Both the position numbers and the translations under genes were made by a program. The notes below the pieces were generated by a model. The model saw only the letters and a list, made by a program, of their open reading frames with translations, made no database searches and was not told the DNA's origin. DNA of 62,105 nucleotides, taken from Candidatus Pacearchaeota archaeon. GTDB taxonomy: Archaea; Nanobdellota; Nanobdellia; Pacearchaeales; UBA284. This document shows positions 7,510 to 62,105 of the stretch, piece by piece (positions within the stretch are counted from its first letter, which is position 1; the number at the start of each line of letters is the position of its first letter). The stretch lies in the NCBI GenBank assembly GCA_038886195.1, contig JAVZYK010000001.1, positions 5,356 through 67,460 of the forward strand, written 5' to 3'.

Positions 7510-7705
7510 TTAATTCTTTTTTTAAGTTTCTTCTAAAAATAAATTTTACCCTCTATAAAAAAGATTTTTAATTGTAAGGGGTAAATACAAAAATCGAGGA
7601 AATGCTAGTAAGAAATAAGTTATAAGAAAAATTTAAACTTCAAAAAAGCATTTTTGCTTGAGAAAGACGAGATAAATTTATAAATTCAAGTTGGCAAGTT
7701 AATGT

Positions 7706-9001
7706 ATGGTTTTAGAAAAAGAGAAAAGAGTTTACATTGATGAGATTAAGAAAGGGACAGTTTTTTTGCAAGGTTGGGTTCATGAAATTAGAGATTTGGC
7801 TAATGTTAAATTTCTTTTGTTGCGTGATGTGACTGGCGTTGTTCAGTGTGTTATTAAGGATGAAAAATTGTTTAATAAATTTAAAGAATTGACTCTTGAA
7901 AGCGTAGTTGCTTTGAAAGGCGAAGTTAAGGGCGCTGTTGTTAAAAGTCAGGAAGTTACTAATAATAAAATTGAAATCGAAGTTCAAGAACTTGAATTAA
8001 TTAACAAAGCTGAAAAGCTGCCGATTCAAGTTGTCGAGAAAGGCATTTCGACTGAATTGTCAAAAAGATTAGATTATAGGAGCATTGATTTAAGAAAAGC
8101 AAAGGTCAAGGCTATTTTCAAAATCCAGAGTGAAATTGCTATGGCATTTAGAAATTTTTTCAAACAAAATGGCTTTATTGAAATACAACCGCCATGCATT
8201 ATTGCTACAGCAAGTGAAGGCGGAACTGCTTTATTTCCAGTACAATATTTTGAAAGAAAAGCATTCTTAGCACAATCACCACAGCTTTATAAACAGATGG
8301 CCGCCATATCTTTAGAAAAAGTTTTTTGTTCTGTTCCTGTTTGGCGAGCTGAGAAGCACAACACCGTAAGGCATCTTAATGAATCAAGGCAGTTTGATAT
8401 TGAAGTGGCTTTCGCTAATGACTTTGACGTTATGCTTTGGCTTGAAAAGGTTGTTCAATTTATTGTTAGTCAAGTTATTAAAAACTGTTCAAAAGAGCTT
8501 GAAATTTTAGGACTGAAATTAAAAATTCCAAAGGCAAAATATCTAAGTTATGATGAAACAATTAAATTATTACAAAAAAACAAGTCAAAGACAAAGGAAG
8601 GCGATGATTTGGCTCCAGAAGACGAAAAAATTCTTTGTAAATTGTTTCCCGATTCTATAGTTTTTGTGCATTCATGGCCTATAAGTTTGAAGCCATTTTA
8701 TATTTGGCCTAAAGACGAGAAAAAAGGAATTAGTGCTGGATTTGATGCTTTATATGGTGGTATAGAAATTTCAAGTGGTGGCCAGAGAATTCATAAGGCT
8801 GATGTTTTAATAAAAATGTTAAAATTAAAAGGTTTAAAGCCAGAGCATTTCGAACATTACATTAATGCTTTTCGTTATGGAGCGCCTTATCACGGAGGCT
8901 GGTCTATCGGCTTAGAGCGGTTTACAATGGCTTTATTGCAACTTGATAATATTCGTGAAGCTTGTATATGGCCTCGAGACAGAGAAAGATTAACGCCTTA
9001 A
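7706..9001 (+). CDS. aspS: Aspartyl-tRNA synthetase, archaeal type (possibly non-discriminating)
   Basis: GWVHEIRD, FLAQSPQLYKQ, EISSGGQRIH, YGAPYHGGWSIGLER, PRDRERLTP. Confidence 0.95.
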   Translation: MVLEKEKRVYIDEIKKGTVFLQGWVHEIRDLANVKFLLLRDVTGVVQCVIKDEKLFNKFKELTLESVVALKGEVKGAVVKSQEVTNNKIEIEVQELELINKAEKLPIQVVEKGISTELSKRLDYRSIDLRKAKVKAIFKIQSEIAMAFRNFFKQNGFIEIQPPCIIATASEGGTALFPVQYFERKAFLAQSPQLYKQMAAISLEKVFCSVPVWRAEKHNTVRHLNESRQFDIEVAFANDFDVMLWLEKVVQFIVSQVIKNCSKELEILGLKLKIPKAKYLSYDETIKLLQKNKSKTKEGDDLAPEDEKILCKLFPDSIVFVHSWPISLKPFYIWPKDEKKGISAGFDALYGGIEISSGGQRIHKADVLIKMLKLKGLKPEHFEHYINAFRYGAPYHGGWSIGLERFTMALLQLDNIREACIWPRDRERLTP

Positions 9002-9033
9002 TTTTCATATTTAAAATAAAAAAGGAGGTGAAA

Positions 9034-17421: not shown

Positions 17422-18564
17422 ATGGAAAAAGAGAAAAATGAATTAAGAATAACTCCTTACGAAGTCGTTGGAGTTGTAACTGAGAAAGATTATCAGTCTT
17501 TAATAAGAGAATTTGGGATTAGACCTTTAACATCGGAACTTTTGGAAAGAATAAAAAAGCATACAAAAGAATTACATTTTATGTTGCGTAGAGGCGTATT
17601 TTTTGCTCATCGTGATTTGGATTGGCTTCTTGATGAATATGAAAAAGGCAACGAATTTTTTCTTTATACTGGAAGAGCGCCTTCTGGTGAAACTCATATA
17701 GGTCATTTATTGCCATGGGTTCTTTGTAAATGGTTACAGGATAAATTTGATGTTGAAATGTGGTTTCAATTTCCCGATGAAGAAAAGTTTATGTTTCGTC
17801 CAGAATTAAGTTTTGACCAGGTTCAAAAATATACTTATGAAAATATGTTGGATGTAATTGCTTTAGGATTTAAACCTGGAAAGACCCATTTTTTAATAGA
17901 TACGAAACATGCCAACTTAATGTATAAAGAGGCATGTAAAGTTGCGAAGAAAATTACTTTTAGTACAGTTAAAGCAGTTTTTGGTTTTACCAATGAGACT
18001 AATATTGGATCTATATTTTACACAGCAATGCAATCAGTTCCCGCTTTCTTGCCTAGCGTGTTGAAAGGCAAAAACATTCCTTGTTTAATTCCTCTTGGAG
18101 TTGATCAAGATCCTCATTTTAGGATAACAAGAGATGTTTTGCCCAAACTTGGCTATTATAAACCTTCTATTTTGCATGCAAAGTTTTTATCTGGTTTGAA
18201 AGTTTATGGTGGTAAAATGTCTACAAGCGATCCTGATTCCACGATTTGGACAACTGATTCTCCAGAACAAGTTAAACAAAAAATAATGAAACACGCATTT
18301 AGCGGAGGACAAGGGACTGTTGAAAAGCATCGAAAACTTGGGGGCAATCCTGACATTGATGTTTCTTTCCAATGGCTTTACTATTTCTTTGAACCTGATG
18401 ATAAAAAAATAGAAGAAATTCGTGAAGATTATAAATCTGGCAAATTATTAACTTCTGAACTTAAAGCTTATCTTATAGATAAAATTAATGAATTCTTAAA
18501 AGAGCATCAAAAGAAGCGAGAACTTGCTAGAAAGCAGGTTGATAAATTTATTTTTAAGTCGTGA
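17422..18564 (+). CDS. trpS: Tryptophanyl-tRNA synthetase (archaeal/eukaryotic type)
   Basis: YTGRAPS..THIGH, GVDQDPHFR, KMSTS, HAFSGG. Confidence 0.96.
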   Translation: MEKEKNELRITPYEVVGVVTEKDYQSLIREFGIRPLTSELLERIKKHTKELHFMLRRGVFFAHRDLDWLLDEYEKGNEFFLYTGRAPSGETHIGHLLPWVLCKWLQDKFDVEMWFQFPDEEKFMFRPELSFDQVQKYTYENMLDVIALGFKPGKTHFLIDTKHANLMYKEACKVAKKITFSTVKAVFGFTNETNIGSIFYTAMQSVPAFLPSVLKGKNIPCLIPLGVDQDPHFRITRDVLPKLGYYKPSILHAKFLSGLKVYGGKMSTSDPDSTIWTTDSPEQVKQKIMKHAFSGGQGTVEKHRKLGGNPDIDVSFQWLYYFFEPDDKKIEEIREDYKSGKLLTSELKAYLIDKINEFLKEHQKKRELARKQVDKFIFKS

Positions 18565-18946
18565 TTTTTAAAATTTTCAATAATTCCTTTTTATTGGCGA
18601 TATACCGAATATATTTTTTATAATTCTTTGGATCTACCTTATAGATTTTAAATTTTCTTATTTGTTTTTTATAGGAATATTGTTGTCTAGGTCCTTTATT
18701 TGCCTTAACATTCACTTCGTACACATATCCTTTTCCTGGTTTTTTATTCCCTACTATTAATAATCTATTTGGGGTAACTGCAAAAACTGTTTTACCTTTC
18801 AATGTTTTTCCTATGGCATATAATGCTGCGTGCTTAAATGTTTTGCATAAAAATACAGCTTTTTGATTTTCAAATTCGCTTAATACTTTCCCTTGTCTTG
18901 GATTTAGAAATTTTAATTTTTTTGGAGAACCATGATATAATTTCAT
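18554..18946 (-). CDS. Basic protein with ADP-ribosyltransferase-like fold signature
   Basis: LYHGS ... AVFL ... A..YA ... GYVYEV strand pattern. Confidence 0.5.
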   Translation of the reverse strand: MKLYHGSPKKLKFLNPRQGKVLSEFENQKAVFLCKTFKHAALYAIGKTLKGKTVFAVTPNRLLIVGNKKPGKGYVYEVNVKANKGPRQQYSYKKQIRKFKIYKVDPKNYKKYIRYIANKKELLKILKITT

Positions 18947-18955
18947 TTATAAAAA

Positions 18956-19030
18956 TGGCCCCGAGGGGATTTGAACCCCCGACACCTTGCTTAAAAGGCA
19001 AGTGCTCTAACCAGGCTGAGCTACGGGACC
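18956..19030 (-). tRNA. tRNA-Lys(TTT)
   Basis: Reverse complement GGTCCCGTAGCTCAGCCTGGTTAGAGCA-CTTGC-CT-TTT-AA-GCAAG...GTTCAAATCC...CGGGGCCA. Confidence 0.95.
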
Positions 19031-19108
19031 TTGTTTAAGTGAAGCAAAGAATGTTTATAAATTTTTGTTAAAATTTTTTAGATTAAAAAAAGAATTCGAA
19101 TTCTCTAT

Positions 19109-19255
19109 TTATATTTTTATTTTTGTATCTTTAATGTCTTTGCTGTGCTGGTCCATCTCACCAGCTTCAAGACAATCCCAACAAGTATGTACAGAACCAT
19201 CAGGCTCTTTAACTATACCAGTTCCGTGACATTTAGGACAATTTTTTCTTGCCAT
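19109..19255 (-). CDS. Small zinc-finger protein (48 aa)
   Basis: Manual translation MARKNCPKCHGTGIVKEPDGSVHTCWDCLEAGEMDQHSKDIKDTKIKI*; below the ORF-track cutoff. Confidence 0.75.
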   Translation of the reverse strand: MARKNCPKCHGTGIVKEPDGSVHTCWDCLEAGEMDQHSKDIKDTKIKI

Positions 19256-19353
19256 TTTTTCCTTAGCCCTAAAAATAGAATGGCTTAGAGTTTAAAAAGT
19301 TTGTTATAATGAACTATCTTTTTAAATAGCAGACAAAAGTTCTTTGCTTCTCT

Positions 19354-19374
19354 AGGTGCTCGGCAATTTTCTTT
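19354..19374. repeat. 21-bp direct repeat, left copy (AGGTGCTCGGCAATTTTCTTT)
   Basis: Identical to 21239-21259; 17-bp core also at 21009-21025. Confidence 0.9.
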
Positions 19375-19480
19375 TCTACTATCCTTTAAATTAATTATTA
19401 ACAAGAGACTGAAAATAAGAGATTAAAAAAATTAAAAAAGAAGAACCAAAAAGAGATGAGAAAAAATAAAAAAAATAAAA

Positions 19481-19702
19481 TTAAACCAAACCTTTTTCTC
19501 TTATATTTTTAGCAATCCTTCCTTTTCCTTCCTTTTCATAATAATCCGCTACTTTATCTCGCAATTCTTCTTGTAAAGGAACACCAGTAGCTTCAATTAT
19601 ATATTTCAAATCATCAAACCTTCCTTCCTCTGCAGCCTTTTGATAACCTGCCTGAATAATTTCATCTTTAATCTTAGGCTTTACACCAGTAAATTTCCCT
19701 TT
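19481..19702 (-). pseudogene. Orphan C-terminal fragment of a helical-repeat protein, no ATG
   Basis: Open frame KGKFTGVKPKIKDEIIQAGYQKAAEEG...DKVADYYEKEGKGRIAKNIREKGLV* directly preceded by a stop. Confidence 0.6.
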
Positions 19703-19718
19703 TTAATTTATACCAAAA

Positions 19719-19835
19719 TTATTTACTAAGTTTCTCTATCTTTCTTCTCAACTCCATTGCCTTTCTTCCCATACCTGCTCTTTCATAAGCATCAGCCAAT
19801 TTTTCCATCTCTATTATCTTCTCCTCTTTATACAT
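19719..19835 (-). pseudogene. Orphan C-terminal cap fragment or micro-ORF (38 aa)
   Basis: MYKEEKIIEMEKLADAYERAGMGRKAMELRRKIEKLSK*; resembles the tail of the adjacent fragment. Confidence 0.5.
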
Positions 19836-19864
19836 TCAAAAATAATAAAAAAATCTCTGAATTA

Positions 19865-21136
19865 TTATTTTTTCTCTCTACTCTTTTCATAACTTTCTAC
19901 TAATATAGAAATAATATCGCCAACGTCTCCTTTTTCTTCAGCCGCTTTTTTCGCATACTTTAAAGCCTCTTCCTTCGCTCCCACCATAGCCGCAATCCAC
20001 CCAGCACCGTAATAGTTTCTTTTTTTAGCCGCTTTTTTTGCATACTCTAAAGCCTCTTTCTTTGCTCCTGCCATAGCCGCAATCCTTCCAGCACAGTAAT
20101 AGTCTCCTTTTTTATCCTCTTTTTTTGCATACTCTAAAGCCTCTTTCTTTGCTCCTACCCTAGCCGCAATCATTCCAGCACCGTAATAGTCTCCTTCTTT
20201 AGCCGCTTTTTTTGCATACTCTAAAGCCTCTTTCTTTGCTCCTGCCATAGCCGCAATATCTCCAGCACCGCCATACAATCCTTTTTTAGCCCATTTTTTT
20301 GCATACTCTAAAGCCTCTTTCTTTGCTCCTACCCTAGCCGCAATCATTCCAGCATCGTCATACCATCCTCTTTCAGCCGCTTTTTTTGCATACTCTAAAG
20401 CCTCTTTCTTTGCTCCTACCCTAGCCGCAATATCTCCAGCACAGCAATACTCTCCTGTTCCAGCCTCTTTTTTTGCATACTCTAAAGCCTCTTCTTTTGC
20501 TCCTACACTAGCCGCAATCATTCCAGCATCGTAATAGTATCCTTTTTCAGCCAGTTTTTTTGCATACTCTAAAGCCTCTTTCTTTGCTCCTACCCTAGCC
20601 GCAATCCTTCCAGCCTTGTCATACCATCCTTTTTCTTCAGCCGCTTTTTTTGCATACTCTAAAGCCTCTTCTTTTGCTCCTACACTAGCCGCAATCATTC
20701 CAGCATCGTAATAGTATCCTTTTTCAGCCAGTTTTTTTGCATACTCTAAAATTTCCTTTTTCTCACTTGGAGAAAATACTTCTTTGACTCCTTTGACTGC
20801 TGGCTTGACTGCTGGCATTCCTATACTTTTTGATTTTGCATATTCTGCCAGTTCTTTAATACGATCAAAATTATTTGTTTTTAATGCCTCTTGAATCTCT
20901 CTTTTAAGCCTGTACCCTTCCCTCTCTTGCAATTTTTTGTAATCTTCTCTAGCAATATCAATAATTTCTGGCAAATGCTCTTCAACAAAAGCTGTTTGCT
21001 TCTCGAGATGCTCGGCAATTTTCTTCTCTACTGCCTCTTTCTCGCGAAACAATTTTTTATACTCAGAAAAACGCTTTACTAACTCTTTCTCCAAATCCTT
21101 TTTCCCTTTTGTCATCCCTTTTTTTTCTTTTGCCAT
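19865..21136 (-). CDS. Helical (TPR-like) tandem-repeat protein with charged N-terminal domain
   Basis: 423 aa; nine full and one partial 29-aa repeats LEYAKKxAxxGxYxxAGxIAAxVGAKxEA. Confidence 0.9.
   Translation of the reverse strand: MAKEKKGMTKGKKDLEKELVKRFSEYKKLFREKEAVEKKIAEHLEKQTAFVEEHLPEIIDIAREDYKKLQEREGYRLKREIQEALKTNNFDRIKELAEYAKSKSIGMPAVKPAVKGVKEVFSPSEKKEILEYAKKLAEKGYYYDAGMIAASVGAKEEALEYAKKAAEEKGWYDKAGRIAARVGAKKEALEYAKKLAEKGYYYDAGMIAASVGAKEEALEYAKKEAGTGEYCCAGDIAARVGAKKEALEYAKKAAERGWYDDAGMIAARVGAKKEALEYAKKWAKKGLYGGAGDIAAMAGAKKEALEYAKKAAKEGDYYGAGMIAARVGAKKEALEYAKKEDKKGDYYCAGRIAAMAGAKKEALEYAKKAAKKRNYYGAGWIAAMVGAKEEALKYAKKAAEEKGDVGDIISILVESYEKSREKK
19928..20749 (-). repeat. Coding tandem array of 87-bp units (one 90 bp)
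   Basis: Recurring TTTGCATACTCTAAAGCCTC and TAGCCGCAAT blocks; units 1 and 3 identical. Confidence 0.95.
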
Positions 21137-21238
21137 ATTTTTTCTTAGTTTTTTTGGTTTTTAAAATTTGTTGCGATGAGTGAGAATCAAAGAGACATAA
21201 TAGAAAGGTTCAAGATAAAAAACGAAGAAGGATTAAAA

Positions 21239-21259
21239 AGGTGCTCGGCAATTTTCTTT
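21239..21259. repeat. 21-bp direct repeat, right copy
   Basis: Identical to 19354-19374; 40 bp from the 3' end of tRNA-Asp. Confidence 0.9.
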
Positions 21260-21299
21260 ACAGAGCCTACAACATCTGCTCGTAATACAGAAAGTTAAA

Positions 21300-21371
21300 C
21301 GCCCGCACCGGGATTCGAACCCGGATTACAGCCGTGACAGGGCTGTGTGTTAACCATTGCACCATACGGGC
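21300..21371 (-). tRNA. tRNA-Asp(GTC)
   Basis: Reverse complement GCCCGTATGGTGCAATGGTTAACACA-CAGCC-CT-GTC-AC-GGCTG...GTTCGAATCCCGGTGCGGGCG. Confidence 0.93.
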
Positions 21372-21487
21372 ACATTTTTTAAAAAATTTTATAATTTTTA
21401 AAGTTTTTCTCTTATGTAAATTTAGAAACTAAAACACTAAAAATTTAAACCCAAAAAGGCAACCATTGTTATAAAAAAGAGGCGAAA

Positions 21488-22096
21488 ATGGAAAAAGGAA
21501 AAGAGCACGAGCATCACAAGCATTTTAAATTCAGGATCGTAGGAAAAAGCGCTTTTGAGAAACATAGAGACTTTTATGAGATATTTTTTTCTGAATTTAT
21601 TTCTATAACTGGCGGTTTGATTGCCGGCTTATTTTTGCTCAATATTAAAAATAGTTTAGAGTTTGTTCCCGCCCTACTTATTCTGCTTCCTGGTTTTTTG
21701 GAACTTCAAGGAAATCTTTTAGGATCTTTAGCTGCAAGATTAAGTGTAGCTTTGCACTTGAGAAAATTGAAGCCTGAACTAAATCATGGAAAAATCTTTA
21801 CTTCCAATATTGCGGCTACTGTTTTTTTAGCATTTGTTGTTTCTATGGTTTTAGGAATCTCTGCTTATATTTTAACTAAAATAATTTTTGGTATTTCGGC
21901 CATAAATATAATTTTTATTTCCATAATTGCCATGTTTTTTTCACTTGTTTTAGGAATTCCTTTAACTGTCTTGGCTATATTTTGGTTTTTTAAAAAAGGA
22001 TTAGAGCCAGATGATATAATGGGGCCTTATGTTACAACTTTAGCAGATGTTATTAGTATTATAACAATTTTGATGGCTATTGCAATAATGGTATAG
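21488..22096 (+). CDS. MgtE/SLC41-type divalent cation transporter membrane domain
   Basis: PGFLELQGNLLGSLAARLS and GLEPDDIMGPYVTTLADV motifs; His-rich N-terminus. Confidence 0.85.
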   Translation: MEKGKEHEHHKHFKFRIVGKSAFEKHRDFYEIFFSEFISITGGLIAGLFLLNIKNSLEFVPALLILLPGFLELQGNLLGSLAARLSVALHLRKLKPELNHGKIFTSNIAATVFLAFVVSMVLGISAYILTKIIFGISAINIIFISIIAMFFSLVLGIPLTVLAIFWFFKKGLEPDDIMGPYVTTLADVISIITILMAIAIMV

Positions 22097-22644: not shown

Positions 22645-23535
22645 TTTCAAATAAGAATATGCGGAAAAAGCGGCTATAGCGCCATCGCTTGCCGCCGTGA
22701 CTATTTGCCTTAGTGTCTTTTTTCTTATGTCGCCCGCTGCGAAAATGCCTTTAATATTTGTTTCCATCGCCTGGTTTGTTAAAATGAATCCTTCTTTGTC
22801 TTTTTGTATCGGTATTTTTTTTAAAAAATAGGTAACAGGAACATTGCCAATTTCTATAAAAATGCCTTGAACGTTAAGTTTCTTTTTATTATTTAAAATT
22901 ATAGATTCAACGAAATTTTTTCCTTTAATTTCTTTAATTCCAGAATTGTAAAGAATTTTAATTTTCTTATTTTTTTTCAATCTTTCAATTTGAATCGGTT
23001 CTGCTTTTAATTCTTTACCTCTATAAATTAGATAGATTTTTTTTGCATATTCTGCCAAAAGCAAAGCGCTCATAACAGCAGAATTGCCGCCACCAATTAC
23101 AGCCACGATTTTATTTTTAAACAAAGGAGCATCACAAGTTGCGCAATAAGAAACGCCTTTGCCAATAAATTTTTCTTCATTGGGAATATTAAGTTTTTTT
23201 CTTTCAGTTCCAGAAGCCAAAATTATTGTCTTTGTTTTGTATATTTTGTTTCCTGTGACAACAAGAAAGTATTTTCTTTTTTTTATTTCTTTAACTTCTT
23301 CTTTAATTATTCTAATATTGAATGTCTTGGCTTGGTCTTCTATTCTTTTTAGCAATTCCATTCCAGAAATGTTTGGAAAGCCAGGATAGTTTTCAATTTT
23401 ATGAGCATAAAAAGCTAGACCAAGTCCTTTGGTTATAACCAATGTTTTTAATTTATATCTTGTTGCATAGATTGCTGCTGTTAGGCCGGCGGGACCGGAG
23501 CCTATAATAATTAAATCATAAATCTCAAATCTCAT
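22630..23535 (-). CDS. trxB: Thioredoxin reductase
   Basis: GSGPAG, GVSYCATCD, GGGNSA, FAAGD. Confidence 0.95.
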   Translation of the reverse strand: MRFEIYDLIIIGSGPAGLTAAIYATRYKLKTLVITKGLGLAFYAHKIENYPGFPNISGMELLKRIEDQAKTFNIRIIKEEVKEIKKRKYFLVVTGNKIYKTKTIILASGTERKKLNIPNEEKFIGKGVSYCATCDAPLFKNKIVAVIGGGNSAVMSALLLAEYAKKIYLIYRGKELKAEPIQIERLKKNKKIKILYNSGIKEIKGKNFVESIILNNKKKLNVQGIFIEIGNVPVTYFLKKIPIQKDKEGFILTNQAMETNIKGIFAAGDIRKKTLRQIVTAASDGAIAAFSAYSYLKSKKP

Positions 23536-54259: not shown

Positions 54260-57200
54260 ATGGCTTATAAAAGATATATAAAGATAGGCGGCAAACTTTA
54301 TGGACCTTATGAATATCATAGTTATCGCGATAGTGATGGTAGTGTAAAAAGTAAATATGTTAGAAAAATAGAGAAAGTAGAAGAAGAAAAGAATCGATTG
54401 AAAAGAAATCTGCTTTTTTTTAAACTGGGTTTTGTCATTTTATTGATTTTTTTTGCGATAATTTTATTTTTTTATATTAAAAATTTAAATGCTTTTACAG
54501 GAAAACTTGCGTTAGATATAACAGATAAAAATAAAATAAACGAGAATCTAAAAGGTTTTATAAATCTAGAATTTAGAGAAGGAGAGTTTTATCCCGCTAA
54601 TTCTAAAATAATTATTAATTTTTATAACTATACTAAAGAATTGACTTTAGAAGAATTTATTTCGCTTTCTAATGTTGAACTCGAGCCTAGAGAAGAAGTT
54701 TTTTACACTACTTCTGGGCTTTTAGATGATCAGGGAAGCGGACTTGGTTATGGGTTTATTGGAACAAAAAAAATGCCTATAGATGTTTATTTTGAATTAA
54801 TAATTGAAAAAGAAATAGAAGAAAATGTTTCTGAAGAAAATATGACTTCAGAAGAAAGCACGAATGAAAGTGAAACTACATCCCAAAGCGAGGCTGAAGA
54901 AACAGAAGTTTCAGAAACAGAAACTTCAGAATCATCAGAAGAAAATCCTTCTGAATCTTCTACAGAGCCTCAAGAAGAGCAATCAGGAGAAAATGAAAAT
55001 CCTATTGAAACCCCTTTAGAATCGCCGGGGTTGCCGGATTCATCCGAAATAAAACAAGAAATTAGAGATGTGTTAACGGGCTCTGTTATTGAAGAAGTTA
55101 AGAGAATTTCAGGAAAATGTGATGCTAATAATCCATTTATCTATACTCTTGAAAGTGGCGAATTTGCAATTTTAGTTCCAGGAAGCGTTAGAACTGATAA
55201 TGAAACTTTGCCCGATTCTAGTGTTAATGTAATTAATGAAGAAAACAAAGTTAAAGTAACTACTGATTATATGTTAGTTCAAGAGGGTTATGGGCGAGAA
55301 TATGTTGGTAAGAAACGTCTTGTGCCTTTAAATATTGAACAATTTAATTTTACTGTGAATGAAGAAGGAACTTATTTATTAAAAGTAGATTTTGTTTATA
55401 ATAATATTACCTTAGCTTCTGTTTCAAAAGAAGTTTCTTTTGAAAATATTACTAAAGTTAACGAGACCAATGAAACAAATCTTTCTTTTGCTCCTGTGTT
55501 AATTAAAGAAATTCCTGATATTACAATTTTGAAAAATGAAAAATATTCTTTTGATCTTACGGAATATTTCAGTGATCCAAATAACAATTCTCTTGAATTC
55601 GGCGCTGATGAGATGGAAAATATAACCATTGAGTTTGAAAATTCAATCGCTACAATTATTCCAGAAGAAAACTTTACTGGTTCAAGACAAACAAGATTTT
55701 ATGCAAGCGATGGCGAGAATGTAACAGAAAGCAATCTTGTTACAATAAATGTTGTTGAAGCCAAAAATTATGTAATCCAAATCATTAATAAAAAGAGTGA
55801 AATTATTGACGAACTTTCTGTGAATGAATCTAAGGTGAAGGTTAAGGTTAATAGAATTGAACAGGAAGGTAAAGAAGAAATTAATTTGATTTTAGAAGAG
55901 AATGAAGATAAGATAGAGACAGAAAATAATGAGAGCTTCGAACAAGAAAATAAAAGTTTAGAAAGCAATGAAAGTTTGGAGGAAGAAAATGAGAGTGTAG
56001 ACATTACAGGAAGCGTTACAGGATACGCAATTTCTGAAAAAAAGAAAGAATATAGTTCAGCTATTAATTTTGTTGCCTTATCAGACATTACTTTTATTCA
56101 GATAGACAAACCTAGTGAAAAGCAACAGAAACAAGGCATTGTTACAGAAATTATTGCTATTGAGCCTAGGGCGGCCAAAGTCGAGAGTGCAGAAATTACT
56201 TTAAAGAAAAATTCAGCGATAAATGTAGCTAAAATAGGTTTTTGTTCTGATTGGAATATTAAAAAATTTGAATGCGATGGTGAGTGGCAAGATACTGAGA
56301 TTGAGTTTGAACAAGATAATGAAACTATCAAATTTAATGTTTCAAGCTTTAGTGCTTATGCTGGATTTTCTGAACTACCAGAAGGCGTTATAATTAAACT
56401 GGTTTCAAACACAGAACAATGTCTCGTAGATTGCGAAGCTGTTTTGGACATTTACATCCCAGAGAGTTTGTTTAACATCACGAATGAAACAGAGGAAAAA
56501 GGAAAAGTACAAGAAAAGAAATTGAAACTTAACAAGATTGCAAAGAAAGATTCTAAACTCATTAGCGACAAGAAGATAAAACTGAAAGAAAAGAAAAGCA
56601 ATTTAATTATTGATGAAGAAAACTGGCTCGATACTGATTTGTTTGACTTGTGGTTCTTGAAAACAGCGAAAAGCCAGGGGCTTGAAGAATTTAGCGTAGA
56701 GAAGCTTGTTGATGTAACCAAAGAAAAAGTTGTTTTTGATTATGAGCCTTGTGGTGAGTCGCCTACAACACCAGGAGCAAAAAAACTTTGTGTAAAAGGC
56801 AACCATGTGGAGCAATATAATGTAGGCGAATGGCATGACTTGCTTGATGAAGGCCTCAGCCCAGGACATAATATTGTTAGAATAAAAGGCAAGAAACAAG
56901 CGACTCTTAATGAAAACAATGTTGATTGGAAAATTGCTATGGAAATAGGTAGTTATCAAGAGCCTAACTTGGCTTGGTGGAATGCCAGTTGGAGCAGAAG
57001 AGTTCCCATTTTTGTATGGGGTCCTAACGGAGCTGGGCCGGAAAATTACGCCATTCCAATGAATATAACTTATGATAGTGACATGCAAAATGATTTTGAT
57101 GATTTAAGATTTGTTGATGATGATAATGTTAGCGAATTGGATTATTGGATCCAGGAAAAAAGCAATGGTGCTTGGGCGCTCGTTTGGGTTGAAATCAAAG

Positions 57201-60200
57201 ATGCAATAAGTGACAGCGAGAATCAAACCGTTTATATGTATTATGGTAATCCTCAGGCGTCTAGTAGAAGCGACATCAGCAAAACTTTCTTGTTTGGTGA
57301 CGACTTCAATGATGGAGTTATTGGGCCAGAATGGATGAATAATACAGGGCCTATTTACGAAGAAAACGGTGTCATTTTTATGAACACAAGTTCTTACACA
57401 GATGTGGCCAAACTTTACATTAATACGACAGATGACATAATTTATGATTTTGCAGTTATGGTTAAAGTTAGGCCTGATCATCTTGATTCTGGCGACTATA
57501 GATTGGGCGTGGCGGCAAAGCACAGGTGGGATGGTTCTGGAGATGGCTACAATGTTTTGATTAAATATGATAACTTAAGTTCGGTTATTTTCCTAGACGA
57601 TTGGAATGCATGGGGTGATGAAGCTTACCCTGGATTTAATTATGAGGAAGGCAATTGGTATTGGTTTGAAATGAGCGTTTTAATGGGAATGTGGGGAGAT
57701 ATTTTGCAAGGTAGAAGCTGGCAAGTTGGTACAGAAAGGCCTGATTGGCAGATAACTCAATCATGGAGCACAAGATCGGGAGCAACTGCCGGGGTTAATT
57801 TAGGCTATTTATCTTATGGAAGTTTTGATGATTTCATTTTGAGAAAATATAGCGGTAATGAGCCGTTTGCTTATGCAATAAATACAAACCAAGAAACTGC
57901 GAATCTTGTTGTAAATGTCTCGAGTCCTGCATGTGTCGAAGGCGAGGCATATTATAGTACAATTCAAGCAGCGATAAATGCAGCAAGCAATGGCTCCTCG
58001 ATAACTGTTTGTCCTGGAACTTACACTGAAAATGTTAAAGTTAATAAGACGGGTTTAAAAATCATAGCATATTCATCAAACTTGGCAGACACAATTGTCC
58101 AGCCAACTTCAACGAGCAACGACGCTTTTGAAATTACAGCCAACTCAACTTTAATTAAGGGCTTTACAATAAGAAACCCTCGCTATGGAGTTTATGTTAA
58201 TGGAAATTATTGGTTTAATGAAATTATGGATTTAAACATTACTTCTGTTAACAGCCAAGGGATAAACCTCAACCAAGCCAAGAACACAACTATTTACAAT
58301 ATTACGGTATACAACTCCACTAGCAGCGCTTATGGTTTCTATTTGGGCAGCGCGCACAACAATACAATTAAGAATTGTGATATTAATACAACGAGTTATG
58401 CGGTTTATCTTTCTTCTAGCAATGACAATTTAATAGAAAACTCAATAATAAAAACGAACGCTGATGGGATCTATCTACATGCTAACAACAACAGAAACGT
58501 TATCAATAACAACACAATAAATGCCACTGGTTCAACTTCTAGCGGTATTTATGTTTACTTCAACAATCCGGATAATAATTTAACTAACAACAATGTTGTA
58601 AAATCTGCTAGAGGAATCAGAATAGAATCTTCAAGGACTTTTGTTAAAAACAACACAGTCTTGAATGCAACAGAATATGGAATTTATATAAGCAATTCTG
58701 AAAATAACACATTGCAGCAAAACCAAGTTAATAATTCGAGATATGGCCTTTACATTGATGGCTCTAACAAATGGCATTTCAATCATAGCATTGACACAAC
58801 TAACTTGGTTAATGGCCTGCCTATTTATTATTACAACAATATAAATGGTATTGGAATAGACTGTGGCTCATTAAACCAGGCGGCTTTAAGTAATGTAAAT
58901 GTTACCGCGGGCGATATTGGCAAGATAACTATTGCTAACTCACAGAATGTTATTGTTAATAACTGCAACATTAGCAATGAAAATCAACTTGGTAATGCTA
59001 TAGCTTTAGTTTATTCTAACAACATAGTTGTACAAAATTCAAACATGAGCAATAATCAATATACGGTTTATCTTGAATCTACAAATAATAGCAATGTTTC
59101 TAATGTTATAAGTTCTGGTTATAAAGGAATTTACCTTTATGGTTATAGCTACAATAATGTGATAGAGAATAACAAAATTAACACAAGTGGAAGCAATGGG
59201 CATGGAATTCATCTTAACGCCTATTCTAGCAACAATGCTGTAAAAAATAACATAATCAATATATTTTATAGTGGTTATGGAGTGCGATTAGAAGGCTCCT
59301 CTTCAGGAAACAATATAACTCAAAATAATATTAGTTCCAATTGTAGTGGTTGCAATGGAATTCATTTATCCACCTCTAACAATAACAGTATTTCATACAA
59401 TTATCTAAATCTTACAGGTAGCAGCGCTTATGGTTTCTATTTGGGCAGCGCGCACAACAATACAATTAAGAATTGTGATATTAATACAACGAGTTATGCG
59501 GTTTATCTTTCTTCTAGCAATGACAATTTAATAGAAAACTCAATAATAAAAACGAACGCTGATGGGATCTATCTACATGCTAACAACAACAGAAACGTTA
59601 TCAATAACAACACAATAAATGCCACTGGTTCAACTTCTAGCGGTATTTATGTTTACTTCAACAATCCGGATAATAATTTAACTAACAACAATGTTGTAAA
59701 ATCTGCTAGAGGAATCAGAATAGAATCTTCAAGGACTTTTGTTAAAAACAACACAGTCTTGAATGCAACAGAATATGGAATTTATATAAGCAATTCTGAA
59801 AATAACACATTGCAGCAAAACCAAGTTAATAATTCGAGATATGGCCTTTACATTGATGGCTCTAACAAATGGCATTTCAATCATAGCATTGACACAACTA
59901 ACTTGGTTAATGGCCTGCCTATTTATTATTACAACAATATAAATGGTATTGGAATAGACTGTGGCTCATTAAACCAGGCGGCTTTAAGTAATGTAAATGT
60001 TACCGCGGGCGATATTGGCAAGATAACTATTGCTAACTCACAGAATGTTATTGTTAATAACTGCAACATTAGCAATGAAAATCAACTTGGTAATGCTATA
60101 GCTTTAGTTTATTCTAACAACATAGTTGTACAAAATTCAAACATGAGTAACAATCAATATACGGTTTATCTTGAAAGAACCAATAATAGCAATGTTTCTA

Positions 60201-62105
60201 ATGTTATAAGTTCTGGCTATAAAGGCATTTACATATATGACTACTGTTATAATAACACGATTGAAAATTCAAAGATTAACACGAGCGCATTAGATGGGGC
60301 TTATGGTATTTATGTTTATAATTATGTTAATGGGACTACAATTAAAAATAATGAAATAAAAACAAATCGCGATAGAGGAATTTATATCAATCAATATTCT
60401 ATGAATAATACCATCCTCAACAACAATGTAACTGTTGTTTCAACAACAAGCATTTATGGTATTCATATCATATCGTTCTCTGATTATGGCAATATTAGTA
60501 ATAACATCGTCAATGTGAGTTGTACTGGGAACTGTTATGGATTTCTTGTTGGTGTAAATAATCTTACTTTATATGGCAATATTGTTTATATAGGATATTC
60601 TAATTATAATCAATATGGGATTTACTTATCTTCTGCAAGCGACTGTATCGTTAATAATTCTTTAATTAGTATTGTTTCTAGTGGTAGGGGAATTACTTTG
60701 AGTGGTTCTTCTTACAGGAATACATTGAATAATAATACTATTTATTTAAATAGTTCTAGTTCGTATGGTATTGAAATGAGTTCTTCTAATAATAATTTAA
60801 CCAATAACAACATTTCTGTTCTAGGAACTGGCTCGAGAGGAATCTATTTCGGAGGCACAACTGCAAATACTACTGTTATTAATAACATAATAACAACAAA
60901 CTTAACTGATGCTAATTCATGGGCATTTTATTCTGATAATGTCAATAATCAAAAGAATGTTTTTATTAACAACATGATTAAAGGCGATAATGCTTCGGCT
61001 GACACAAATATCAGCTTTAGTTATTATGGCCAAATTGCTTTAAAAGGCGTTACAACATCAGCAAGACCTAGCAATCCAAGCGGTTATGGGAATATAAATA
61101 AGTACATAAATGTAACAAATCTAAGCTCAGGCTCGTGGCTTTTCTTAAATGTAAGTTATAGTGATTCTGATGTTTATTTTGTTGATGAAGATACTTTGTT
61201 TATAGCAAGACACAACGGAACCTGGGAAATTGATACAAGCAAGTTTTCGAGCAGTTATGGAAGGGACACTGTAAACAATTATGTTTACGCAAACATAACA
61301 AACTTCTCAACTTTCGCGCCATTGGGTAACAAAAAAACAGGATGTGTTGGCGAACATTATGTTTTTGGTTGTGGCGATAAGATTAATGAATCTTGCACGA
61401 TGAATGCTGATTTAAAATCAGATGGCACTTGCTTTACGATTGGAAATGATAATATTATTCTTGACTGCGCCGGCTATAGTATCAATTATTCAACAACTCA
61501 GGAAGGTTATGGCATTGATAATAGTGGCGGCTTTGATAACATAACGATAAAGAACTGTACAATAGTTCAAGAAAATCAAAGTGTGCAGGGCTTTAACATT
61601 TTCTTGAATAATTCTGACAACAGCATTGTAGAATATAACAATTTAACAAGAGGTAAAGGCGGAATTCTTGCAATTAATTCCTTTAATTTAACGGCAAGAC
61701 ACAATTATGGCTCTTATTTTGAATATGGCGAATCATTCAATTGGAATGTTTGTGAACCTTTCAATGATACTGAATCATACAAATATTTCGAGTCAGCAAT
61801 ATGGCTAGTTGATAGCAATAATGCGACAATATTTAACAATACAATTCAAGGCAATACAACTGAAGCAGGAATGGAAAATCATCTTGGAACAGAATCCGCA
61901 ATAACCTTATGCAGAAGTAACTATAGCAACATTTCCAGCAACACAATTAGAGCAACAGATACTTATGGGATACATATTTATAATAGCACTTACGCTGTTG
62001 CTACTTATAATTTTGTTAATGGCTCTAGCGCTTATGGAGCAACAAACACTAATGATGGCATAATTCTTGCAGCTGGCTCTAATCATAATGTTTCCTTCAA
62101 TGAAT
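54260..62105 (+). CDS. Giant surface/adhesin-like protein (>2600 aa; 3' truncated by window edge)
   Basis: ATG 54260 (MAYKRYIK); same frame reads open at every spot check to the end; TM, acidic linkers, cadherin-like, DUF2341-like (DFDDLRF..LDYW..VWV) and parallel beta-helix repeats. Confidence 0.88.
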   Translation, partial: MAYKRYIKIGGKLYGPYEYHSYRDSDGSVKSKYVRKIEKVEEEKNRLKRNLLFFKLGFVILLIFFAIILFFYIKNLNAFTGKLALDITDKNKINENLKGFINLEFREGEFYPANSKIIINFYNYTKELTLEEFISLSNVELEPREEVFYTTSGLLDDQGSGLGYGFIGTKKMPIDVYFELIIEKEIEENVSEENMTSEESTNESETTSQSEAEETEVSETETSESSEENPSESSTEPQEEQSGENENPIETPLESPGLPDSSEIKQEIRDVLTGSVIEEVKRISGKCDANNPFIYTLESGEFAILVPGSVRTDNETLPDSSVNVINEENKVKVTTDYMLVQEGYGREYVGKKRLVPLNIEQFNFTVNEEGTYLLKVDFVYNNITLASVSKEVSFENITKVNETNETNLSFAPVLIKEIPDITILKNEKYSFDLTEYFSDPNNNSLEFGADEMENITIEFENSIATIIPEENFTGSRQTRFYASDGENVTESNLVTINVVEAKNYVIQIINKKSEIIDELSVNESKVKVKVNRIEQEGKEEINLILEENEDKIETENNESFEQENKSLESNESLEEENESVDITGSVTGYAISEKKKEYSSAINFVALSDITFIQIDKPSEKQQKQGIVTEIIAIEPRAAKVESAEITLKKNSAINVAKIGFCSDWNIKKFECDGEWQDTEIEFEQDNETIKFNVSSFSAYAGFSELPEGVIIKLVSNTEQCLVDCEAVLDIYIPESLFNITNETEEKGKVQEKKLKLNKIAKKDSKLISDKKIKLKEKKSNLIIDEENWLDTDLFDLWFLKTAKSQGLEEFSVEKLVDVTKEKVVFDYEPCGESPTTPGAKKLCVKGNHVEQYNVGEWHDLLDEGLSPGHNIVRIKGKKQATLNENNVDWKIAMEIGSYQEPNLAWWNASWSRRVPIFVWGPNGAGPENYAIPMNITYDSDMQNDFDDLRFVDDDNVSELDYWIQEKSNGAWALVWVEIKDAISDSENQTVYMYYGNPQASSRSDISKTFLFGDDFNDGVIGPEWMNNTGPIYEENGVIFMNTSSYTDVAKLYINTTDDIIYDFAVMVKVRPDHLDSGDYRLGVAAKHRWDGSGDGYNVLIKYDNLSSVIFLDDWNAWGDEAYPGFNYEEGNWYWFEMSVLMGMWGDILQGRSWQVGTERPDWQITQSWSTRSGATAGVNLGYLSYGSFDDFILRKYSGNEPFAYAINTNQETANLVVNVSSPACVEGEAYYSTIQAAINAASNGSSITVCPGTYTENVKVNKTGLKIIAYSSNLADTIVQPTSTSNDAFEITANSTLIKGFTIRNPRYGVYVNGNYWFNEIMDLNITSVNSQGINLNQAKNTTIYNITVYNSTSSAYGFYLGSAHNNTIKNCDINTTSYAVYLSSSNDNLIENSIIKTNADGIYLHANNNRNVINNNTINATGSTSSGIYVYFNNPDNNLTNNNVVKSARGIRIESSRTFVKNNTVLNATEYGIYISNSENNTLQQNQVNNSRYGLYIDGSNKWHFNHSIDTTNLVNGLPIYYYNNINGIGIDCGSLNQAALSNVNVTAGDIGKITIANSQNVIVNNCNISNENQLGNAIALVYSNNIVVQNSNMSNNQYTVYLESTNNSNVSNVISSGYKGIYLYGYSYNNVIENNKINTSGSNGHGIHLNAYSSNNAVKNNIINIFYSGYGVRLEGSSSGNNITQNNISSNCSGCNGIHLSTSNNNSISYNYLNLTGSSAYGFYLGSAHNNTIKNCDINTTSYAVYLSSSNDNLIENSIIKTNADGIYLHANNNRNVINNNTINATGSTSSGIYVYFNNPDNNLTNNNVVKSARGIRIESSRTFVKNNTVLNATEYGIYISNSENNTLQQNQVNNSRYGLYIDGSNKWHFNHSIDTTNLVNGLPIYYYNNINGIGIDCGSLNQAALSNVNVTAGDIGKITIANSQNVIVNNCNISNENQLGNAIALVYSNNIVVQNSNMSNNQYTVYLERTNNSNVSNVISSGYKGIYIYDYCYNNTIENSKINTSALDGAYGIYVYNYVNGTTIKNNEIKTNRDRGIYINQYSMNNTILNNNVTVVSTTSIYGIHIISFSDYGNISNNIVNVSCTGNCYGFLVGVNNLTLYGNIVYIGYSNYNQYGIYLSSASDCIVNNSLISIVSSGRGITLSGSSYRNTLNNNTIYLNSSSSYGIEMSSSNNNLTNNNISVLGTGSRGIYFGGTTANTTVINNIITTNLTDANSWAFYSDNVNNQKNVFINNMIKGDNASADTNISFSYYGQIALKGVTTSARPSNPSGYGNINKYINVTNLSSGSWLFLNVSYSDSDVYFVDEDTLFIARHNGTWEIDTSKFSSSYGRDTVNNYVYANITNFSTFAPLGNKKTGCVGEHYVFGCGDKINESCTMNADLKSDGTCFTIGNDNIILDCAGYSINYSTTQEGYGIDNSGGFDNITIKNCTIVQENQSVQGFNIFLNNSDNSIVEYNNLTRGKGGILAINSFNLTARHNYGSYFEYGESFNWNVCEPFNDTESYKYFESAIWLVDSNNATIFNNTIQGNTTEAGMENHLGTESAITLCRSNYSNISSNTIRATDTYGIHIYNSTYAVATYNFVNGSSAYGATNTNDGIILAAGSNHNVSFNE
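58321..60147 (+). repeat. 729-bp direct duplication (58321-59049 and 59419-60147), period 1098 bp
   Basis: Both copies start TAGCAGCGCTTATGGTTTCT and read identically by eye to ...AAACATGAG; in frame. Confidence 0.9.

Follow-up and report, generated by a model that had tools for sequence, protein, structure and literature searches.

In Mycoplasma vsa-type inversions and in pilin-type silent cassettes, surface proteins are switched through a recombination site that lies within the 5' coding region. The additive flexible genomic islands of Alteromonas occupy tRNA hot spots and carry a tRNA-derived border repeat, with integrases involved, in the part of the published account used here (PMC4898812). 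In Haloferax volcanii, microhomology-mediated end joining (MMEJ) uses microhomologies of more than 2 and less than 50 nt, as given in the portion of the report drawn on here (PMC12281630), and recombination in Sulfolobus acidocaldarius separates markers that are 20-30 nt apart, according to the sections used of PMC3367456. Here we describe a locus in a 62,105-nt stretch of archaeal DNA (contig JAVZYK010000001.1 of assembly GCA_038886195.1, positions 5,356 to 67,460), which we call the window. The locus, or islet, lies between a tRNA-Asp gene and a small zinc-ribbon gene (ZnR) that is followed by a tRNA-Lys gene. It holds an intact gene for a 423-aa repeat protein and three copies of a short sequence, one at the left border (L), one at the right border (R) and one inside the N-terminal coding region of the gene (M). 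We propose that gene turnover left L and R behind as short scars and that short-homology recombination between these direct repeats deletes the islet; we give this reading a probability of about 0.6.

The genome assembly is metagenome-derived, comprises 645,366 bases with 31% G+C and is 91.6% complete. The host is a Pacearchaeota-like DPANN archaeon, and the closest named relative of the 423-aa protein is annotated as Candidatus Pacearchaeota archaeon. The stretch is partly present in six hot-spring sequencing runs, none of them listed as RNA, of which four (X1 to X4) were aligned. These population data are Logan contigs and unitigs, in which depth and absence are to be read cautiously. X1 has the best coverage and may be the source sample of the genome. 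The sister runs X2, X3 and X4 sampled different populations and are represented by contigs, not raw reads; gaps in the islet coverage of X3 and X4 were not used as evidence.

The 21-nt word AGGTGCTCGGCAATTTTCTTT is read on the plus strand at 19354-19374 (L) and at 21239-21259 (R), and its 17-nt core TGCTCGGCAATTTTCTT on the same strand at 21009-21025 (M), inside the repeat-protein gene. In a repeat search and with blastn-short the two outer words are identical (21/21, E 2.7e-8) and R matches M over 17/17 positions. L matches M over a longer stretch, 19333-19380 against 20985-21032, where 43/48 positions are identical (89.6%, E 1.4e-11). A first-pass annotation, made from the sequence alone, had described a word at both borders with its core in the gene, all in one orientation, and a 43/48 match, in an interval between tRNA-Lys and tRNA-Asp with no integrase in the window. 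This description holds: the coordinates were confirmed, the N-terminal coding translations of L (VEKKIAEHLEKQRTFV) and M (VEKKIAEHLEKQTAFV) were verified, ARAGORN and Rfam call both tRNA genes, and the whole genome, at 91.6% completeness, has no match to the tyrosine recombinase profile PF00589.

At up to three mismatches the core has three matches in the window, against 0.31 expected, and 0/100 shuffles reach three. At up to two mismatches it has three forward and no reverse matches in all 645,366 bases, and the reversed control pattern has none. Among non-low-complexity repeats of at least 17 nt in the whole genome, L and R are the sole exact pair of at least 21 nt lying no more than 5 kb apart and outside longer paralogous or tandem duplications. 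Because about 25 isolated pairs of 16-18 nt exist in the 620-kb contig, a lone 17-mer is unremarkable, and it is the 48-nt and 21-nt matches that are remarkable. One further 17-nt exact direct repeat (20834-20850 and 23041-23057) lies in the repeat gene and, 2.2 kb away, in a thioredoxin-reductase-like gene. It encodes AEYAK in both and is probably a chance occurrence, given the number of similar pairs.

M is the most conserved stretch of the N-terminal module of the protein; E37, K39, I40, H43 and L44, which fall exactly in the part that the motif encodes, are invariant in an alignment of four proteins. The homology between L and M stops abruptly at 48 nt; the adjoining 60-nt flanks are identical at 16/60 and 17/60 positions, and their best local scores are lower than the shuffle means. 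The reading frame of L consists of 23 open codons (RIVEKKIAEHLEKQRTFVCYLKR) with no start, and stops lie two codons upstream and five codons downstream. No start codon is found in the frame of R, which is placed 102 nt upstream of the ATG of the repeat gene and 39 nt downstream of the 3' end of tRNA-Asp.

Of the five differences between L and M, three fall on synonymous third bases, and the other two are non-synonymous. R carries both L variant bases and not those of M, so L and R stem from one L-type source. In X2 the L copy has M-like bases at both non-synonymous differences, together with a 2-nt deletion, which implies that the ancestral L differed from M only at the three synonymous sites. 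A difference confined to synonymous sites is what a fragment of an allele or paralogue that once functioned would show. L itself is free of coding constraint and now drifts regardless of reading frame. The near-identity over 21 and 48 nt amid unrelated sequence and the mosaic L of X2 are reminiscent of short-patch conversion in S. acidocaldarius, whose tracts are short and discontinuous in the sections used of PMC3367456. Unlike in that system, no conversion event was observed here, and the flanks of L and R are no longer paralogue-like. A diversity-generating retroelement, with its pair of template and variable repeats, was considered and rejected: the reverse transcriptase profile PF00078 has 0 matches in the genome, and only three of the five differences are at adenine of the L coding strand.

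A form of the locus with a single motif copy is found in X4. One 93-nt unitig (depth 5.5) consists of 19334-19363, a G and 21251-21312, with 0 other letters. It skips 1,887 nt and joins the left flank of L to the right flank of R through one copy of the motif. Logan unitigs are built on 31-mers, and words of this length that span the 21-nt motif tie both flanks together physically. The unitig overlaps by 30 nt a 480-nt unitig that covers 19109-19363 (depth 4.4, 2 differences), and on the right side a 1,291-nt contig covers 21298-21900 (depth 5.1, 6 differences); the flanking unitigs are about 99% identical to the window. In this one-copy form the spacer between tRNA-Asp and ZnR is 157 nt long, compared with 64-82 nt in related genomes, and about 41 nt of it are homologous to codons 38-51 of the gene. 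The homologous gene in a genome of another family (G063) carries the codons matching this remnant in place. A site that had never been occupied should not hold a piece of the gene, and we therefore read the X4 form as having arisen, directly or by descent, from a deletion that joined L to R. The first-pass annotation had suggested a crossover site that allows excision, and loss between the outer copies, from 19363 to 21251, is what the X4 unitig displays.

The locus resembles a deletion at short direct repeats in all tested features: the repeats flank the lost segment, and the product seen in X4 keeps one copy and both flanks. The likeness extends to the MMEJ deletions of H. volcanii, as far as the portion used of PMC12281630 describes them, which also take place at short direct repeats and leave a one-copy product with the outer flanks; the 21 nt of our repeat are within their range. 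Fen1 and RadA are encoded in our genome. The difference is that we are dealing with a natural polymorphism inferred from metagenome contigs, and no break was induced.

The arrangement of L, M and R could be an artefact if strain variants had been stitched serially at a shared short word. The genome is of metagenome origin, the samples show polymorphism at the locus, and the 21-nt length of the repeat is that of a common smallest k-mer size. A second assembler nevertheless gives the same arrangement. In the Logan assembly of X1, L with its flanks is present on a 25,311-nt contig (record 1, 18500-20053) and M and R with theirs on a 37,772-nt contig (record 6, 20644-21900), both with 0 differences, and X2 also has L and R. 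We find an artefact barely credible. Only the number of 87-nt repeats within the gene is unsure, as an X1 Logan contig joins 20466 to 20644 with 107 letters that fit both sides.

X2 retains L and R around an interior that has diverged. On the left side a 2,459-nt contig stops at 19383, and on the right side homology begins only at 21204, where one contig has 255 unlike letters before it. Within the interior there are 8 differences in 368 nt (20735-21102) and 18 in 139 nt (19544-19682). The M allele of X2 and X3 has C>T at 21013 and at 21031, which give E41K and V36I. The same two residues occur in P0003, a 138-aa Logan protein that has a different first 17 residues and ends after the first repeat, and this match suggests that sister strains carry rearranged or truncated versions of the gene. 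A joint in X2 from 19691 to 21112, which skips 1,420 nt and has a side of 39 letters, is uninterpretable; it involves a shared C/T-rich word and may be an effect of the alignment.

Comparison with related genomes identifies the islet as additional DNA. In three relatives of the same family in which this neighbourhood is assembled, the spacer between tRNA-Asp and ZnR is 82 nt (G006), 64 nt (G010) and 66 nt in G013, the tRNA-Asp of which was identified by blastn and by eye, ARAGORN having made no call. Measured against this arrangement, which is the common one in the family, the 2,043 nt found here are an insertion, and the ancestral arrangement is tRNA-Asp directly beside ZnR. No DNA match to 19380-21250 was found in 40 relatives except in an A-rich low-complexity stretch. 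In G002, of the same genus, ZnR and tRNA-Asp are on separate contigs that break there and have unrelated neighbours (a KAS III-like gene, a 191-aa protein and a lipoprotein), and in G001, also of this genus, the contig begins 279 nt from tRNA-Asp with unrelated sequence. The site is thus variable even inside the genus. The first-pass annotation had recommended comparing the interval between the two tRNA genes across strains; it does vary, with the insert absent from kin, and the motif is absent from the copies of the interval in the 40 relatives. Several relatives, as well as G000:C1:526620-526696, give blastn matches of 77-81% to the A-rich stretch (19410-19484) over about 70-80 nt; this stretch is probably low-complexity Lys-rich coding or spacer sequence.

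Two short fragments, frag73 and orf38 (Table 1), are found downstream of the gene. The motif at the C-terminal end of frag73 is similar to the C-terminus of P0004 (E 0.001), a protein related to ours at its N-terminus. orf38 is identical to frag73 at 11/22 positions (E 1e-5) and gives no BLASTP alignment with P0004. The similarity of frag73 to residues 66-92 of the N-terminal module (E 0.5-1.3) is only suggestive, and the lack of longer relatives of frag73 among 48 candidates is weak evidence. These alignments indicate that frag73 is a relic of another family member and orf38 a second C-terminal relic. With L and R added, the fragment homologies imply that the islet comprises one intact gene and at least four family fragments. 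The first-pass annotation had set the simple decay of tandem paralogues against its own proposal, and the two homologous C-terminal fragments go part of the way towards such decay.

On the reading that we favour, the interval between tRNA-Asp and ZnR would be a strain-variable insertion hot spot, which in this strain holds one intact gene of a very rare orphan family and the debris of earlier members. L and R would derive from an allele or paralogue whose differences from today's gene were mostly synonymous, and would have been left or copied as short patches, through deletion end-points, short-patch gene conversion or templated repair. Each might represent what remained between two deletion end-points, the conversion of paralogue remains no longer recognisable, or templated filler at a rearrangement joint. 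They would have no dedicated function, and as identical 21-nt direct repeats 1,885 nt apart they would form a substrate for recombination. The reaction may be MMEJ, single-strand annealing, replication slippage or RadA-dependent exchange, and its presumed outcome is removal of the whole islet with one motif copy left. The opposite direction, re-insertion at a pre-existing relic, is conceivable as well and would be the same reaction backwards. Of the repair and recombination proteins, the profile searches of the genome covered the RadA/Rad51 family, with two matches, and Fen1 (XPG_I), with one match over the cut-off.

Several observations weigh against this reading. The junction is a single short unitig from one run, with a likeness of at least 85 and a shorter side of 30 letters, which is at the border of what can be trusted. 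The motif in X4 differs from L and R by a G for CA, so the event was either not recent or not precise, and the X4 form could be the older state. Two razor-sharp copies, of 48 and 21 nt, are unlike the gradual decay of whole paralogues and need extra events. L and R have been kept in X1 and X2 while the interior differs, and a functional border would show the same behaviour. Finally, the outer motifs are about 100 nt (98 and 102) upstream of minus-strand starts, a placement that a scar model does not predict. It is the single-unitig junction, the unexplained sharpness of the copies and the persistence of L and R over differing interiors that keep our confidence from being higher.

Identical direct repeats of 21 nt that border an insert beside a tRNA gene, and a one-copy form in a sister population, are also features of an integrated element. 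L and R could thus be attL/attR-like sites of a small mobilisable cassette, on which a site-specific recombinase acts in trans from a virus, a plasmid or unassembled DNA. The homologous gene at an unrelated site in another family shows, in addition, that the gene moves. As in tRNA-associated elements, the border repeats (21/21) and an empty site with one copy were found, but an integrase and a copy of the tRNA 3' end were not. PF00589 has 0 matches in the 645-kb genome, a search in which the control was positive in 14/14 genomes and serine recombinases and DDE transposases were not searched for. The longest matches to the tRNA genes within 19031-21298 are 8 nt (tRNA-Asp) and 9 nt (tRNA-Lys), and R begins 39 nt past the tRNA end, so the repeat is not a copy of that end. 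The repeat belongs instead to a 48-nt copy of the cassette's own coding sequence and has, by eye, no internal inverted symmetry, and the open reading frames (ORFs) of the islet are the repeat gene and short fragments only. No circle junction is listed in the four runs, and in IMG/VR neither a relative of the gene nor an extended match to the motif was found. We think a cassette of this kind improbable, and the locus was rejected as an att-site element for its lack of an integrase and a tRNA copy. The Alteromonas islands are similar in that a stretch beside a tRNA gene varies among kin, that cassettes are gained and lost fast and that a direct repeat marks the border. They differ, on the part of PMC4898812 used here, in that the repeat in our locus is the cassette's own coding piece and not a repeated piece of a tRNA, and in that the search for an integrase found none.

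The copy of the gene in G063 bears on the same question. It is the best genomic homologue (76% identity over 268 residues) and is situated between enolase and response-regulator genes with no tRNA beside it; the sole tRNA gene in these 16 kb encodes tRNA-Ala and is about 6.5 kb distant. The flanks of the G063 gene contain no copy of its N-terminal coding stretch, and the only direct repeat around the gene is a purine-only exact 16-mer, not a repeat of the kind that a cassette of this type would carry. The 16-mer (7692-7707 and 8991-9006 of locus L023) encodes GKERE twice, in the enolase and the response-regulator genes, and was treated as chance.

The conservation of the motif within the module (E37, K39, I40, H43 and L44) allows a more workable form of the crossover idea, in which the relic copies are homology anchors for the gain, loss and exchange of family members without a recombinase. 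The module occurs with at least two bodies: P0004 is 47% identical to our protein over the first 62 residues (E 1e-9) and has an unrelated body thereafter, and a 157-aa protein of G044 consists of the body without the module. At the level of the family, this bears out the part of the first-pass annotation that proposed bodies swapped behind a constant N-terminus. The retention of L and R in the X1 and X2 lineages around differing interiors, and the mosaic of L-type and M-type bases in the X2 L, which suggests exchange, would fit such anchors too. Against them, the locus has a single intact gene and no silent bodies, and the tRNA genes and ZnR already provide long conserved flanks, so that no special site is needed. 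At 47% identity the P0004 module points to an ancient swap, and the motif copy in X4 is itself mutated. The joints expected from exchange through M, L with M (1,652 nt) and M with R (233 nt), are not listed in the four runs. We consider anchors of this kind unlikely. A more specific version, in which the relics are portable homology handles bracketing a tRNA-side slot in ultra-small DPANN genomes that lack integrases, is improbable as well. Were this recombinase-free cassette slot real, the X4 junction would be one toggle state and the L/R pair kept across strains would be the borders of the slot. Family members with different bodies would then be dropped, regained or exchanged by short-homology recombination alone.

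As a place for switching bodies, the word itself fares worse. Recombination between L and R removes the whole gene, including its promoter and N-terminus, there is no promoterless gene body after L or R, and no recombinase was found; this part of the first-pass proposal, and with it the expected recombinants through M, did not hold up. Neither L nor R is followed by any coding similarity, and only one intact gene is present at the locus. In common with the vsa-type and silent cassette systems, a short word in the N-terminal coding region of a repeat-rich gene (M, codons 36-51) recurs nearby. The copies here are direct, however, and not inverted, there are no silent bodies and no recombinase was found. 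The model of the 423-aa protein moreover has no signal peptide or membrane segment, and recombination between L and R deletes the gene and does not switch it. A 5'-site switching system was rejected for the lack of silent bodies and of a recombinase and for the direct orientation of the copies.

The placement of the outer motifs, 98 nt before the start of ZnR (L) and 102 nt before that of the repeat gene (R), raises the question of a regulatory word, which could bind a protein about 100 nt ahead of two genes on the minus strand or could be the source of a short plus-strand antisense RNA to codons 36-51. All copies have one orientation, and on the plus strand A/T-rich TATA-like boxes can be seen by eye about 25 nt before both, although such boxes are ubiquitous at 31% G+C. 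The word is absent upstream of ZnR in G006, G010 and G013 and from the tRNA-Asp trailer of G001, and it is altered in X4 (by an indel) and in the M of X2 and X3 (C>T). Rfam has no match over threshold other than the two tRNAs, and the folds are no better than those of shuffled sequences (z -0.17, 0.03, -1.43 and -0.44). The contexts of L and R thus offer no RNA family or significant fold for the regulator or antisense site that the first-pass annotation had offered as its second option, and we hold a regulatory word to be highly improbable.

The motif shows no enrichment elsewhere in the genome or in the 40 relatives' copies of the interval, the search that had been suggested with the crossover proposal. 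Exact scans with a degenerate form of the 21-nt word gave 10 loci in a genome contig collection and 13 in a metagenome contig collection, and the 17-nt core has 17 loci in a viral contig collection. All are single matches in unrelated DNA, mostly of higher G+C, and the longest stretch that any of them has in common with our locus is 38 nt (31 nt in the viral contigs). At these loci tblastn found no relatives of the islet gene or fragments; among the queries taken from the neighbourhood of the islet, the sole match was one of 36 aa to TrxR, in L034. Relatives of the repeat gene are likewise missing from the genome contig and viral contig (IMG/VR) collections. With matches at chance level in all three collections, the motif was rejected as part of a wider element.

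We return to the gene whose loss the scars would mediate. Its start is backed by the alignment to P0004. A single-sequence AlphaFold2 model of the 423-aa protein (mean pLDDT 83.4) has a long helix at residues 3-86, a low-confidence, disordered linker at 107-119 and then about ten helix-hairpin repeats of 29 aa, built from 20 short paired helices whose pLDDT exceeds 90. Neither a signal peptide nor a membrane segment is visible in the model. The protein has no Pfam or NCBIfam family over the cut-off: TPR or PPR families are not listed in Pfam at E up to 1, and the NCBIfam model TPR_END_plus scores 16.4 bits against a cut-off of 32. The proteins that Foldseek ranks highest are PPR and TPR designs (E 1e-7 to 1e-4, TM only 0.26-0.44), and the ESM Atlas gives TPR/PPR-like leads that are sub-threshold. 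TPR and PPR repeats have a length of 34-35 aa, compared with 29 aa here. On the model, the protein resembles a TPR/PPR-type solenoid, with profile scores that stay below the cut-off. The G+C of the gene is 0.42-0.44 against 0.31 for the window; the Ala/Gly-rich repeats account for this, and we did not take it as a sign of transfer.

The family is extremely small. Among 7,998 scored candidates of similar length there are two matches, with one shorter match in addition, and the N-terminal 130 residues have three matches in 1.84 billion representatives. The gene was found in 0/40 relatives, both same-genus genomes included, and in 4/400 other genomes of the order, and is not vertically conserved. 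A further member, P0002, has a different N-terminus and a C-terminal membrane segment, read from its hydrophobic tail. Taken together, the sequences suggest a modular family, in which an N-terminal helical module and a 29-aa solenoid have been recombined with other parts. The gene family and the locus were not found described in the literature, in searches that targeted mechanisms rather than the family.

Table 1. Features of the islet and its borders, in window coordinates
Feature	Position	Strand	Description
tRNA-Lys(UUU)	18956..19030	-	left anchor, conserved; ARAGORN, Rfam tRNA 69 bits
ZnR	19109..19255	-	48-aa CxxC...CxxC zinc-ribbon gene; ORF
Islet	19256..21298		2,043-nt strain-specific interval, ZnR to tRNA-Asp
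L	19333..19380	-	48-nt relic of codons V36-V51 of the N-terminal module; 21-nt motif at 19354-19374
Segment missing in X4 form	19364..21250		junction inside motif, G for CA; records 27, 29, 30
Spacer	19381..19480	-	T-rich on the minus strand; sequence
frag73	19481..19699	-	72 open codons; only start gives 42 aa; C-terminal motif KVADYYEKEGKGRIAKNIR
orf38	19719..19835	-	38-aa ORF homologous to frag73 C-terminal motif
Repeat gene	19865..21136	-	intact, 423 aa; only long ORF of the interval
Tandem array	19940..20750	-	period 87 nt, 9.3 copies, 86% matches (TRF)
M	20985..21032	-	coding original VEKKIAEHLEKQTAFV, codons 36-51; core 21009-21025
R	21239..21259	-	isolated 21-nt copy identical to L motif; flanks unrelated
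tRNA-Asp(GUC)	21299..21372	-	right anchor, conserved; ARAGORN, Rfam

Read along the minus strand, the order is tRNA-Asp, 39 nt, R, 102 nt, the 423-aa gene with M, orf38, frag73, a T-rich 100 nt, L, 98 nt, ZnR and tRNA-Lys. Besides the repeat gene the islet has no ORF of more than 72 codons. The T-rich spacer is probably an archaeal oligo-T termination zone after the upstream fragments. ZnR is present in 15/23 other genomes of the family and has weak profile matches, below the cut-off, to DnaJ_CXXCXGXG and anti-TRAP. In X2 and X4 the 75-nt spacer between tRNA-Lys and ZnR (19033-19109) is replaced by 199 other letters, which makes it a second, minor structural polymorphism of the locus. A 19-nt inverted match (19038-19056 and 19335-19353), 16/19 complementary with an 11-nt exact core, joins the region just upstream of tRNA-Lys to the left part of L and so brackets ZnR; it is near chance expectation. 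A 130-aa Lys-rich ORF with no Pfam or NCBIfam match adjoins tRNA-Lys (18554-18946, minus strand). To the right of tRNA-Asp are two MgtE-like genes and one thioredoxin-reductase-like gene.

Some tRNA genes of the relatives seem to have introns. The tRNA-Asp of G013 (L025 2388-2490), missed by ARAGORN, is one of these, and introns of 69 and 50 nt were called in the tRNA-Lys of G019 (L062 2491-2636) and the tRNA-Ala of G022 (L061 277-410). Far from the islet, an open frame of more than 2,615 aa (54260-62104, plus strand) runs past the end of the window. It has an N-terminal hydrophobic stretch, Asn/Ser/Thr-rich repeats and an internal duplication of 1,098 nt, of which 729 nt are exactly identical (at about 58321 and 59419), and it resembles a giant surface protein.

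In our reading of L and R as scars that mediate loss, the locus adds a case, from an organism that is itself unusual, to a familiar kind of event, namely ordinary repeat-mediated loss with no dedicated switching, and it introduces no new principle. The gene involved belongs to an orphan family that is modular and unstable across hot-spring strains; searches of billions of proteins detected only about five relatives. If the reading is true, the islet would be a clean natural case in a DPANN archaeon of strain-specific gene loss through a 21-nt direct repeat. It would also show how the debris of earlier gene copies creates such repeats, and would help us to understand how genes turn over in very small genomes that are poor in integrases.

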